From positions 1,481 to 65,480 of the forward strand of contig JAQBGW010000165.1 of NCBI GenBank assembly GCA_032128415.1: DNA of 64,000 nt. The letters are read 5' to 3'. The DNA is from Betaproteobacteria bacterium. GTDB taxonomy: Bacteria; Pseudomonadota; Gammaproteobacteria; Burkholderiales; SG8-41. The translations under genes were made by a program, and so were the position numbers. Every line of letters begins with the position of its first letter. Position 1 is the first letter of the stretch. Shown here piece after piece: positions 46,424 to 50,325 of the stretch. Below the pieces are notes generated by a model. The model was given only the letters and a program-made list of their open reading frames with translations. It did not search any database and was not told the DNA's origin.

Positions 46424-47586
46424 ACCGTAAACCCCCGCGCCAACTGTCGATTCTCCCAGTCCACACGCAGCAACACAGCCAGCGCGCAGCAGGTGGCGAG
46501 AATTGCGCTGCCGCCGAAGGACAGCAGCGGCAGTGTCAGACCCTTGGTCGGCAACACGCCCATGTTGACGCCCATGTTGACGATCGCCTGCACACCGATC
46601 CACAGACCGATGCCTTGCGCTACGAGCGCAGCAAACGGTCGCTCCCTATCGGCGGCGCGGCGGCCAATGACGAAGGCGCGCCATACCATCCACCCAAACA
46701 ACAGTACCAGCGTCAGGACTCCGACAAAGCCGAGTTCTTCGGCAATCACCGCCAGCAGAAAATCGGTATGCGCCTCGGGCAGATAAAAGAGCTTCTCCAC
46801 GCTGGCGCCCAGACCCACGCCCAGCCATTCGCCGCGACCGAAGGCGATCAGCGCGTGGGAGAGCTGGTAACCCTTGCCGTACGGATCTGCCCACGGATCC
46901 ATAAAGCCGATCACGCGTTGCATGCGGTAAGGACTGGTCCAGATCAGCAGCAGAAAGCCGAACACCAACATGACGATCAAACCCGCAAACAGGCGCCAGT
47001 TCATGCCGCCGAGAAACAGGATGCCCATGGCAATCACTGTGATGACGGCGAGCGCGCCGAAATCCGGCTCGCGCAACAGCAAGCCTCCGGTCAGCAACAT
47101 CACGCCGAACATCGGCAAAAACCCTTTGCGCAGACTGTGCAGGAAGGCTGCCTTGCGCACCGTGTAATCGGCAGCGTAGATCACTACAAACAGCTTCATC
47201 AGTTCGGACGGCTGCACATTGATCACGAACAGCGACAACCAGCGCCGGCTGCCGTTGACCTCGCGCCCGATACCCGGCACCAGCACCAGCACCAGCAATA
47301 TCAGTCCGCTGATAAACAAGAACGGTGCGGTGCGCTGCCACAGACGCAGCGGAATCTGGAACACCATCGTGCCGGCCATGAGACTGATCAACACAAACGA
47401 TAGGTGTCGCGTCAGGTAATGGGTCGCGTTGTTGCCGGTGATGCGGCTCGCCTCGGCAATCGCGATGGATGACGAATACACCATGACCACGCCAATGGCG
47501 AGCAGCAGCAGCGTGACCCAGATCAGCGCGCGGTCGTACTCCGGCAACGCGGCTCGGGATCCGGCCGTAGCGAAATAGGCGCTCAT
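46420..47586 (-). CDS. ftsW: Peptidoglycan glycosyltransferase FtsW
   Basis: [30 protein letters not shown]. Confidence 0.98.
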
Positions 47587-48962
47587 GACTGCCGCTCCGC
47601 GATCACCGTCACCGCTGCGGCGAATACTTCTGCACGATGCACATAGTTGCGGTACATGTCGTAACTGGCACAGGCCGGCGACAACACCACAGCGTCGCCG
47701 GGCCGCGCCGCAGCCAGCGCCAAGGCCACGGCTTCCGTCATGTCTCCTGCACGCAATACGGGAGCAGCGGCGCCGATGGCGGCGGCGATGCGTGCAGCAT
47801 CGCGACCGATCAGCACCACGGCGCGCGCTTTACCACGCGCAGCCGCTGCCAGCGGCGCAAAATCCTGGCCTTTGCCGTCGCCACCCGCGATCAGCACCAC
47901 CGTCTGCGACATGCCGCGCAGCGCGGCGACCGTGGCCCCGACATTGGTGCCTTTGGAATCGTCGTAAAACTCTATCTTATTGATTTCATTAATCTTTTTA
48001 ACCCGATGTGGCAGTCCGCTGAACTGCGCCCAGCCGGCAACAATGGCGTCATCTGCAATACCCGCGGCCCGGCACAACGCGCCTGCCGCAAGCGCATTCG
48101 CCGCGTTGTGCATGCCGCTGACGCGCAACCGGTCTATGCCGGCCAGCACGGTCGCCCCGCGCGCCAGGTGCGACACTGTCTTAGATGCGATTACACCCCA
48201 ATCATCGGCTGCCCGCGGTTGATCAAGGCCGAAGCTCACCACCCGGCGCTGCTGCCGCGCCATGCCGGCGCTCCACACATCCTGGCGATTGATGACCTGT
48301 ACGCCGCTGCCGGCAAAGATGCGCGCCTTGGCCTGCGCGTACTCGCGCAGCCCGTCATAGCGATCGAGATGATCCTCTGAAATATTGAGCACCGTCGCTG
48401 CTGTGGCATCCAGCGTGTCTATGCTTTCCAGTTGAAAACTCGACAGCTCCAGTACGAATATGCCCGGCATCGCTGTGCCTGCTTCAATATCGGCCAGCGC
48501 GTCGAGTACCGGCAGTCCTATATTCCCGGCTACAACCGGCTGCAGTTTTGCCGCAGCGCAGATTTCACCGACCATGGCCGTCACGGTGCTCTTGCCGTTG
48601 GAGCCGGTAATGGCGAGGATCGGCGGTGCATCGCCGCGCGCACGCAACGCCTGCGCGAACAATTCAACATCGCCCACCACCGGTACACCGCGTCGCGCAG
48701 CTGCGGCAATGGTGCCGCCGCGACGATCAACGCCCGGGCTGACCGCGATCACATCCGCAGTTGCCACCTGCGCGTCCGGGGTTATTCCCAACGTCAGCGG
48801 CATGTCCGGAAAATCGCGCCGCAGGGTTTCACCGTGTGGTGGCGCGGCGCGGGTATCGGTGACGCGCACTACCGCGCCGCGCCGGTGCGCCCACCGCGCC
48901 ATCGACAGTCCGGAATCGCCGAGGCCAACAACCAGCACCTTTGCGCCTTTAAGGATCAGCAT
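47583..48962 (-). CDS. murD: UDP-N-acetylmuramoyl-L-alanine--D-glutamate ligase
   Basis: [36 protein letters not shown]; start set at MLILKG. Confidence 0.97.
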
Positions 48963-49065
48963 CAGCAGTGGCTCCCGTACACCACTACGACCGCAGTCAC
49001 GGACTCGGCGCAGATGGCCATGCCGGTGTGCAATGGGTTCGTGTCTGTAGAGGTCACTGCGCATC

Positions 49066-49239
49066 TCATCGCAGCTTCAGCGTGGACAAACCCACGAGCA
49101 CCAGCATCATCGTGATAATCCAGAAGCACACTGGGCGGTTTTGGCTCCGGCCGCCATGTCGCGCAGGCGCAACATGACTTAACCTGCCAAGCAGGTCAGC
49201 CTTCGCCGAAACCACCTCGTCGTTCGCTATTCTGGTCAT
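49066..49239 (-). CDS. Possible 57-aa ORF ending in the MraY C-terminal helix
   Basis: ATG directly after the mraY TAG, open in frame into the second copy; below the 60-aa cutoff of the track. Expression unknown. Confidence 0.3.
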   Translation of the reverse strand: MTRIANDEVVSAKADLLGRLSHVAPARHGGRSQNRPVCFWIITMMLVLVGLSTLKLR

Positions 49240-49301
49240 CTATCTCAGCTTCAATGTCGAAAGCCCCACGAGCACCAGCATCATCGTGATAATCCAGAAG
49301 C
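49066..49301 (-). repeat. Direct duplication of the last 62 bp of mraY (49066-49127 and 49240-49301) flanking a 112-bp insert
   Basis: 37 bp are identical (49091-49127 = 49265-49301); the remaining 25 bp differ only synonymously. Both copies encode [23 protein letters not shown]. Confidence 0.93.
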
Positions 49302-50325
49302 GAACGACGACCTGGTTTTCTTTCCAGCCTTTCAGTTCGTAGTGATGGTGCAGCGGCGCCATTCGGAATATCCGTTTCCCGGTCAACTTGAACGAGGCTA
49401 CCTGCAGCATCACCGAAAGCGTTTCCACTACGAATACGCCACCCATGATGAACAGCACGATCTCCTGCCGCACGATGACGGCGATGGTACCCAGCGCCGC
49501 GCCCAGGGCGAGCGCACCGACATCACCCATGAATACTTCCGCGGGATAGGCGTTGAACCACAGGAAAGCAAGACCGGCGCCCGCGATGGCGCCACAAATC
49601 ACCGTGAGCTCGCCGGCTCCGGGGATATATGGAAACACCAGATACCGGGCAAACACCGCATTGCCTGCCACATAGGCAAATACGCCCAACGCACTGCCCA
49701 CCATGACCGTCGGCATGATGGCGAGGCCATCCAGACCATCCGTCAGATTCACCGCATTGCTGGTGCCGACGATGACGAAATAGGTCATGACGATAAAACC
49801 GACAGCGCCCAGCGGATAAGTCACCTGCTTGAAAAACGGCACGATGAATGTGGTCTGCGCCGGCAGGTTCGTCGAATACGCAATAAAAATGGCCGCAGCC
49901 AGACCAACCACCGATTGCCAGAAAAATTTGGTTTTTGCCGACAACCCCTTCGGATTTCGGCGCACTACCTTGCGGTAATCGTCAACCCAGCCTATTGCAC
50001 CGAATCCGGCAGTCACGCACAGCACCACCCAGACAAAGCGGTTTTGAAGATCAGCCCACAGCAACGTCGTGACGAGGATCGATACCAGGATCAGTGCGCC
50101 GCCCATGGTCGGCGTGCCGGCCTTCACCAGATGGCTCTGCGGACCGTCATCACGCACGGACTGGCCAATTTTGTACACGGCCAGCTTGCGAATGAGCGCC
50201 GGTCCAACGACGAAAGAAATCAGCAACGCAGTCAGACACGCCAGCACGGCGCGCAGCGTCAGATAACTAAATACATTGAAAGCGCGTATGTCCTTCGCGA
50301 GCCACTGTGCCAATTCAAGGAGCAT
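49240..50325 (-). CDS. mraY: Phospho-N-acetylmuramoyl-pentapeptide transferase
   Basis: [34 protein letters not shown]. Confidence 0.99.

Follow-up and report, generated by a model that had tools for sequence, protein, structure and literature searches.

An apparently undescribed family of branched-hairpin elements in Betaproteobacteria, with insertion at gene ends possibly set by DNA pairing

The 3′ end of the cell-wall gene mraY is doubled in the genome of a Betaproteobacteria bacterium (G000; NCBI GenBank assembly GCA_032128415.1), and we find that the two tails enclose one copy of a widespread, apparently undescribed family of small elements in Betaproteobacteria. That these elements form a mobile family is near certain. 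Comparison of loci indicates that a variable antisense tract ahead of a conserved scaffold marks the left junction. We consider it rather likely that this gene-less branched hairpin moves as folded single-stranded DNA (ssDNA), with junctions set by pairing and joined by a putative enzyme acting in trans. The window, which supplies all coordinates below unless another contig is named, is the whole stretch of 64,000 nucleotides that was analyzed (contig JAQBGW010000165.1, positions 1,481 to 65,480, forward strand).

RESULTS

Structure of the doubled mraY tail

The ORF upstream of the insert encodes MraY and the ORF downstream MurD, as assigned by Pfam. The parts of the locus are listed below, with a caret marking each junction.

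49240..50325, minus strand: mraY, the intact host gene, 361 aa (PF00953, PF10555)
49315..49320, minus strand: left junction GA^AAAC (Glu-Asn), boundary 49319/49318, ambiguous by one shared A
49240..49318, minus strand: 79-bp upstream copy of the mraY tail, the one that is translated; the antisense tract matches its first ~30 nt
49209..49239, minus strand: antisense tract ("guide"), seen as inverted pair I2, by blastn and in folds
49142..49208, minus strand: conserved branched-hairpin scaffold, ending in CCA (covariance model R1)
49138..49144, minus strand: right junction CCA^AAAC, boundary 49142/49141
49066..49141, minus strand: downstream tail copy, 76 bp (14 degenerate bp, 37 identical bp and 25 bp with 9 synonymous differences)
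49066..49239, minus strand: predicted relay frame of 57 codons, from the first base after the mraY stop to a second stop
47583..49064, minus strand: murD, whose true start may be the ATG at 48962

An earlier note on this DNA had described the last 62 bp of mraY as occurring twice, 174 bp apart, with 112 bp between the copies. Repeat comparison bore this out, placing the direct repeats at 49240-49301 and 49066-49127, and likewise the description of 37 identical bp (49127-49091 in the downstream copy) followed by 25 bp with nine differences, all synonymous, including the TAG/TGA stop. The true 5′ start of the duplication lies 17 bp beyond the 62-bp repeat, at the Glu-Asn codon pair of GA^AAAC. 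The distal tail begins with 14 degenerate bp, its guide-matched part lacking 3 nt, and this copy is one codon shorter. Counted from GA^ to CCA^, the element unit measures 177 bp (49318-49142, minus strand).

The 112-bp insert opens with an inverted copy of the GA^AAAC site (inverted pair I2 and folds; RNA fold z = -4.98). The tract pairs with 49318-49294 through 6 bp, 2 mismatches, 11 bp, a 2-nt bulge, and 6 bp, and its proximal 8 nt have an alternative pairing, in the fold, with the element's own right flank. The scaffold comprises a basal stem with a C.A mismatch, a GNA/GNA internal loop, a TAAC/GTTA stem, and two variable hairpins; model R1 matches it at 49138-49212 with 63.5 bits, the window copy being itself one of the 56 seed rows. 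Together, the insert and the distal tail stay open as the 57-codon frame, which ends 1 nt before the first murD ATG and, as read from the sequence, likely preserves translational coupling to murD. We also note that murD has an in-frame 34-codon 5′ extension (48962-49064) ahead of a second ATG with a ribosome-binding-like motif, and that the first ATG is conserved in most congeners.

The duplication is real and alternates with empty alleles

The same two-copy layout was found in G001, G011, and G013 and at the mraY of further genomes of the family. Contigs over the insert, reaching into both repeats, were recovered from runs X1, X2, and X3, all of study P1, and a contig from run X5, of the independent study P2, crosses the insert with 7 differences. 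This support consists of contigs rather than raw reads, and X1 and X2 are possibly the source data of the assembly. Depth of the insert contigs relative to their flanks was 0.66 (X1), 1.2 (X3), 1.3 (X2), and ~1 (X5). The insert was not covered in runs X8, X9, X10, and X13, and neither an excised joint nor a circle was seen in contigs of the runs examined. An assembly chimera of two strains might be suspected, as the genome lies in 186 contigs with 3.9% contamination and no single contig in the runs examined spans the whole kilobase. However, the layout recurs in other species and an independent-study contig crosses the insert, so the doubled tail is not an assembly artifact; a chimera is already contradicted and, in our view, next to impossible.

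Alignment of the mraY-murD junctions of relatives recovered empty sites, for which the earlier note had suggested looking: 20 of 23 scored matching congeners are empty. The mraY tail duplication is real, with filled and empty alleles in congeners. In an mraY tree of 35 rows (L050 was too short and was left out), filled alleles are scattered, with five changes, at least four of them forced. The empty alleles are mosaics: of the nine differences, the first six carry the upstream state and the last three the downstream state. Scattered filled alleles and mosaic empty ones are as expected from loss by recombination. Since a codon is missing from the downstream tail in the window, MraY would be damaged by precise excision; the element is probably locked in here, to be lost only by recombination between the tails.

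The earlier note had observed that the copy used by mraY has less host-like codons, which holds (the rarer codon at 5 of 6 positions), and had inferred that this upstream tail may be donated by an element. The rarer codons fit this polarity without proving it, but the empty alleles are mosaics of the two copies. As a separate observation, 8 of the 20 empty congener alleles (L005-L024) read GAG AAY instead of the GAA AAY of all filled alleles, which is compatible with chance or with target escape.

The element could instead be a domesticated cis-regulator, in which the tract would pair with the coding tail in mRNA and the relay frame would tune termination and re-initiation, mobility being secondary. 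Several genera retain the element at mraY, and of 34 single-unit sense loci, 31 have the relay frame open, whereas the other frames are open in 19 and 1. We nonetheless regard this as very unlikely, since gain and loss are patchy among close kin, copies occur inside other mobile elements and on non-coding strands, and the open frame is partly inherent in the conserved scaffold.

Distribution and targets of the family

With the insert core as query, 43 of 159 genomes of the family gave a match at E <= 0.01, in many cases a weak one (the tally includes the unpublished G050). Exact-pattern scans, which demanded AAAAC at the right end and not GA at the left, found at least 120 loci in genome contigs and at least 120 in metagenome contigs. 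The titled genome records among the matches listed were mostly Betaproteobacteria, with some labeled Proteobacteria only, two Gammaproteobacteria, and one Streptomycetaceae. Covariance model R1, built from 56 copies, had matches in 67 of 149 genomes of the order (including the unpublished G332), in none of 148 genomes sampled from other families of the class, and in 2 of 148 sampled across the phylum, one of the same order and one weak (E 6e-4). Three near-complete genomes carry 50 (G331), 61, and 55 copies. One pattern search that gave 18 copies, against 166 by the model, was not used for counts. There were no matches in the viral contigs searched, none in the phage search, only a chance-level 22-bp match in the plasmid search, and no relevant match in Rfam, TwoAYGGAY included.

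The element stands at dozens of housekeeping genes and tRNAs. A Pfam scan of 140 of the 176 picked flanking ORFs supported metK, ftsW, hisG, acs, glmS, folE2, gap, hypD, recA, dnaB, accB, proB, and nuoC as neighbors; argF, serS, trpE, galU, and tRNA-Ser/Leu, named by reading the sequence, also appear to be targets. With ftsW, murG, and many other housekeeping genes hit in the same way, mraY is not the unusual target it had been taken for, although the broader idea of a mobile element that spares its essential target by means of a replacement tail is upheld. Whole units also occur in tandem arrays.

In tRNA-type copies, it is the 5′ half of the tRNA that is duplicated, and the stem finds its partner in the 5′ end of the element itself rather than in the target. 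The tract may therefore be structural, and recurrence at a site may come from homologous recombination. The source genome holds two copies, the one at mraY and one at a tRNA-Ser-like gene on contig C138. The latter (C138:4832-4996; L188) is a worn copy between a duplicated 5′ half and the whole tRNA-Ser-like gene, with a relic further upstream. At L061 and L104, two different elements are nested at two GA sites in the duplicated 5′ half of one tRNA gene.

Some copies travel in other repeats. In G331 (L232-L254) and G362 (L265-L281), a short-capped element rides as passenger in a larger repeat, itself multi-copy and with conserved ends of its own, and one copy of this repeat adjoins a DUF772 and DDE_Tnp_1 transposase (L245). 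A repeat of several hundred bases with long inverted ends and the scaffold inside was seen at L095, L134, L140, and L152, three of the four loci coming from one MAG. Finally, insertions at L087, L117, L157, L168, L173, L272, and L467 lie in frame within coding regions and are read through as a short peptide; the hosts, by their apparent similarity, include RND transporters and RecG-, CysN-, and LysS-like proteins.

An antisense tract marks the left junction

At the 111 loci with enough flank, we compared the bases ahead of the scaffold with sites 37-136 nt upstream. At least 12 of 15 positions formed Watson-Crick pairs at 58 loci, against 5 of 600 swapped controls, and GA directly precedes 57 of the 58 paired sites. 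Among 280 scorable arrays (of 314), 142 score at least 8 to a distant upstream site, 132 of these sites following GA and 112 of the 142 arrays having a downstream duplicate; scores of at least 10 were reached in 114 of the 280 arrays and 25 of 1,500 controls. A further 63 arrays were classed as self-capped hairpins. The rule is also visible in a guide-blind set of 112 loci chosen by duplication alone, where GA stands exactly in register with the CCA end in 81 and a mean of 7.2 of 9 positions pair beyond the first four bases (~2.3 expected by chance). As loci share ancestry and targets, p-values overstate these effects and the statistics describe rather than prove them.

The pairing follows the upstream copy: where the tail copies of the guide-blind set differ, it is better upstream in 44 of 50 cases and better downstream in 4. 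The four bases after GA covary with the last four of the guide (AAAC, AAAT, AAGA, AAGT, CAAG, and GAAT). First-base synonymous switches in Arg, Leu, and Ser codons are enriched inside the guide-paired part, at 31 of 84 compared with 19 of 109 outside it. Duplications range from 25 to 112 bp across loci, linkers from tail to tract are mostly 10-40 nt, and the tail copies are identical over bases 5-13 at 24 of 93 loci.

Short-capped copies insert precisely and without duplication, with varied bases after CCA (e.g., L242, L272, and L467), so that only a single shared A leaves the boundary ambiguous. Fifteen such junctions comprise 8 after GA, 3 after CA, 2 after TA, and 2 others. The frame that hosts the L242 insertion is presumably an IS256-like transposase, and L191 adjoins an IS3-type integrase core.

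These sequence comparisons show that the left junction is marked by the tract. Homologous recombination through the tail would, however, bring the element in with the same outcome, and marking the junction therefore falls short of demonstrating that the tract finds new targets.

An origin without any enzyme was weighed against these junctions. A hairpin repeat behind a stop codon would stall replication, template switching would copy the tail, fold-back would make the tract, and RecA would spread or remove the unit. The lack of an enzyme in our surveys (below), the empty alleles as recombinant mosaics of both copies, and a few loci where the tract starts 0-5 nt from the end of the duplication would suit such an origin. 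We judge it unlikely, as the GA^ and CCA^ junctions are fixed across many families and targets and precise insertions occur without duplication. The prevailing linkers of 10-40 nt do not generally support a fold-back origin of the guide. The ssDNA reading that we prefer has its own misfit, in that 75 of the 280 arrays belong to neither the distant-paired nor the self-capped class.

The conserved fold favors ssDNA

The scaffold stems covary, with 92% of cells paired and 76 cells with double changes, a level reached by 0 of 500 shuffles, the invariant columns being partly set by the search pattern. A G-C to A-T swap of the basal stem occurs in 46 of 410 elements. C-GNA-G-type triloops are a stable ssDNA motif. 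On the folded strand, they close 41 of 117 and 27 of 77 hairpins, compared with 0 and 3 for the reverse form, and they were found in 0 of 136 terminator-like hairpins of G000, which were detected by a different method. Of 86 guided loci that could be classified by strand (47 more were too short or unclear), 8 lie on the non-coding strand with the gene start duplicated: galU four times, murG twice, and two others. The triloops and the non-coding-strand insertions favor ssDNA. We found no lagging-strand bias (31:23 in G362 and 12:20 in G331, with the terminus assumed opposite dnaA and passengers included), in contrast to IS608; this counts against the model and against an IS608-like link to replication.

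An RNA element would account for some of the same data. The scaffold would be a ribozyme or a reverse transcriptase (RT) template that reverse-splices at GA^NAA, the tract acting like the internal guide of an intron. In keeping with this, the strand that folds corresponds to the mRNA at 78 of the 86 classifiable loci, G.T wobbles favor that strand, 11 of 117 hairpins have GNRA-type loops, and RT genes occur in 9 of 20 copy-rich against 3 of 16 copy-free genomes. Yet the eight non-coding-strand loci and the DNA-typical triloops do not fit, G331 and G389 have no RT, no Rfam family matches, and splicing would delete an mraY codon and drop host residues at the RND loci. We consider an RNA element distinctly unlikely.

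Surveys for a mobilizing enzyme

Among the 140 scanned flanking ORFs, no recombinase recurs; one integrase ORF lies beside the tRNA copy L312. We then compared enzyme genes between 20 copy-rich and 16 copy-free genomes of the order set. Y1 genes were present in 15 of 20 versus 10 of 16, IS91-type genes in 1 versus 3, and IS110 genes in 7 versus 6. The integron integrase IntI was present in 14 versus 6 (Fisher p 0.09, among kin that are not independent) and, counting remnants, in 17 versus 7 (p 0.014). In the near-complete G331, with its 50 copies, none of the surveyed enzymes was intact over the cut-off, and IS110 genes are missing from both G331 and G362. Genomes rich in copies can do without RAYT, RT, IS91, or IS110 genes, and IntI, weakly associated with copy-rich genomes, is the only lead among the enzymes. 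G331 also holds a frameshifted integron integrase remnant (C1:1442478-1442823).

No scaffold was found beside the Y1 genes fetched. The weak Y1 matches seen in copy-rich genomes turned out to be ordinary RAYTs, accompanied by GTAG REPs of their own but not by the scaffold. Short RAYT genes with their own GTAG-footed REP pairs on the flanks were also seen in Betaproteobacteria at L468, L470, L472, and L475. An inverted element pair in G362 flanks no enzyme, half-motif searches turned up no autonomous element, and the four integron regions fetched contained ordinary attC sites and no scaffold, bar one passenger copy.

These surveys bear on the earlier note's proposal of an attL/attR scar of a lost integrase element. 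A tyrosine integrase would have left the scar at the mraY 3′ end and its cargo would have been lost, or the unit would be a substrate of a resident integron integrase. The replacement tail and the empty sites are present as such an origin would have it, IntI shows the association given above, G000 carries intI, and the TAAC/GTTA stem is reminiscent of the attC R box. However, the GA^AAAC junction falls outside the 37-bp identical block, no larger form, cargo, or linked integrase was seen at any locus read, and the 112 bp are the element itself. In addition, the attC sites of G362 look different, the junction lies outside AAC, and the target is not GWT, in comparison with the crossover described in bioRxiv 2022.09.11.507474. 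We find either form of integrase origin highly improbable.

DISCUSSION

Comparison with known systems

Membership in the IS200/IS605, REP/RAYT, attC, MITE, IS110, and Rfam families fails on the tested features. The closest likeness is to IS200/IS605 and its ORF-less derivatives, which share strand-specific hairpin ends and an apparent choice of cut by DNA-DNA pairing (passages of PMC5934647 and PMC8266576); the precise insertion of short-capped copies without target duplication is a further likeness. IS608 selects its site by DNA pairing, and an engineered form accepts 8-13 extra guide bases (PMC5934647; see also PMC8266576 and PMC6006769). The present guide differs in being naturally long and variable and in pairing 3′ of the cut, whereas that of IS608 pairs 5′, a mirror-image geometry that counts against our model. 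There is also one scaffold in place of two ends, a host gene tail is captured, and neither a TnpA link nor a replichore bias is seen: no cognate Y1 TnpA between the same hairpins was found near the Y1 genes fetched, and none over the cut-off in G331.

REP, BIME, and REPIN sequences with their RAYTs are similar in being small palindromic repeats with GNAG at the stem feet, tandem arrays, and tens of copies per genome. They differ in their fixed GTAG/GTGG and cleavage at CT or CA, as set out in sections of PMC8266576, whereas here the N of GNAG is free and the bases preceding the junctions are GA and CCA. The RAYTs of these genomes are flanked by their own GTAG REPs, not by the scaffold.

YPAL/RU-2 of Yersinia, as excerpts of PMC2229807 present it, resembles the element in size (~170 bp), internal inverted repeats, lack of TA ends, and variable-length duplications. 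Its target duplications are 3-26 bp, whereas those here are 25-112 bp, start from a fixed GA, and are antisense-matched; the same excerpts mention no guide. As in MIRU (PMC12548453, in part), an open frame through the element would keep translational coupling; here, 57 codons stay open from the upstream stop to the downstream start and may be translated. Rickettsia palindromic elements are read into proteins (PMC2229807). Neither is described, in the parts consulted, with a tail duplication set by a complementary tract.

With attC/IntI and with integrase elements that restore tRNA or gene ends, the family shares a folded single strand as putative recombination substrate, the TAAC/GTTA stem, and a replaced gene end. 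It differs in its junction outside AAC, a target other than GWT, and the lack of an L box and of an integrase; in the relevant passage of bioRxiv 2022.09.11.507474, integron crossover falls inside AAC with GWT as genomic target.

Other classes were rejected on simpler grounds. A classical MITE would have terminal inverted repeats and a short fixed TA duplication, and the duplications here are absent or 25-112 bp. An integrase attL/attR element has no linked integrase or larger cargo between the repeats to point to, and group I/II introns, retroelements, and Rfam RNAs are set aside for want of a relevant Rfam match and of an RT in G331 and G389. IS110 bridge-RNA elements combine a fixed scaffold with a variable target-matching segment, and the present family does likewise. 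Its guide differs in standing in cis, contiguous with the junction, and in matching one strand only, and IS110 genes are missing from G331 and G362, as noted above.

In the main texts searched, mostly outside subscription journals, no description of the family or its guide was found. The text of PMC3733652 gave no Betaproteobacteria passage for the terms tried. The preprint bioRxiv 10.64898/2026.09.22.753630 describes TwoAYGGAY, a different structure, and the present family could be among the unannotated multi-hairpin loci that it lists.

A model for insertion

By analogy with IS608, we infer that the element is non-autonomous and that DNA pairing, here through a long natural guide, selects its junction. 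Next to the C.A mismatch, the last four bases of the tract could hold the upstream NAAY or, alternatively, the one in the element's own right flank. Exchange of the 5′ neighbors, GA and CCA, would free a closed circle with the gene tail aboard, which could re-enter an empty allele at the same GA through guide pairing or tail recombination. Re-entry at the same GA would keep the gene whole and yield the layout seen, the copies being identical at first. Later changes in the downstream copy, often first-base synonymous switches, would weaken its pairing with the guide.

More tentatively, a scaffold of ~65 nt of ssDNA with a guide of 10-25 nt might constitute a natural reprogrammable insertion system served by an undescribed host or trans-acting enzyme, a possibility that we think doubtful at present. 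Read as programmable, it could address any guide-matching GA^NAA on either strand, and up to ~100 nt of cargo would rebuild the target gene.

Significance

It has long been asked how small palindromic repeats spread through bacterial genomes. Here, the junction follows a rule precise to the base and is predicted by a variable tract, which makes the mechanism directly testable. Should the tract truly act as a guide, long-guide ssDNA targeting, which had to be engineered into IS608, would already be in use in nature, and the enzyme might serve as a compact programmable tool. The family explains the doubled, recoded gene ends in essential operons (dcw, arg, trp, and tRNAs) in about half of sampled Betaproteobacteria, and how odd codons can persist in gene tails after the element has been lost.
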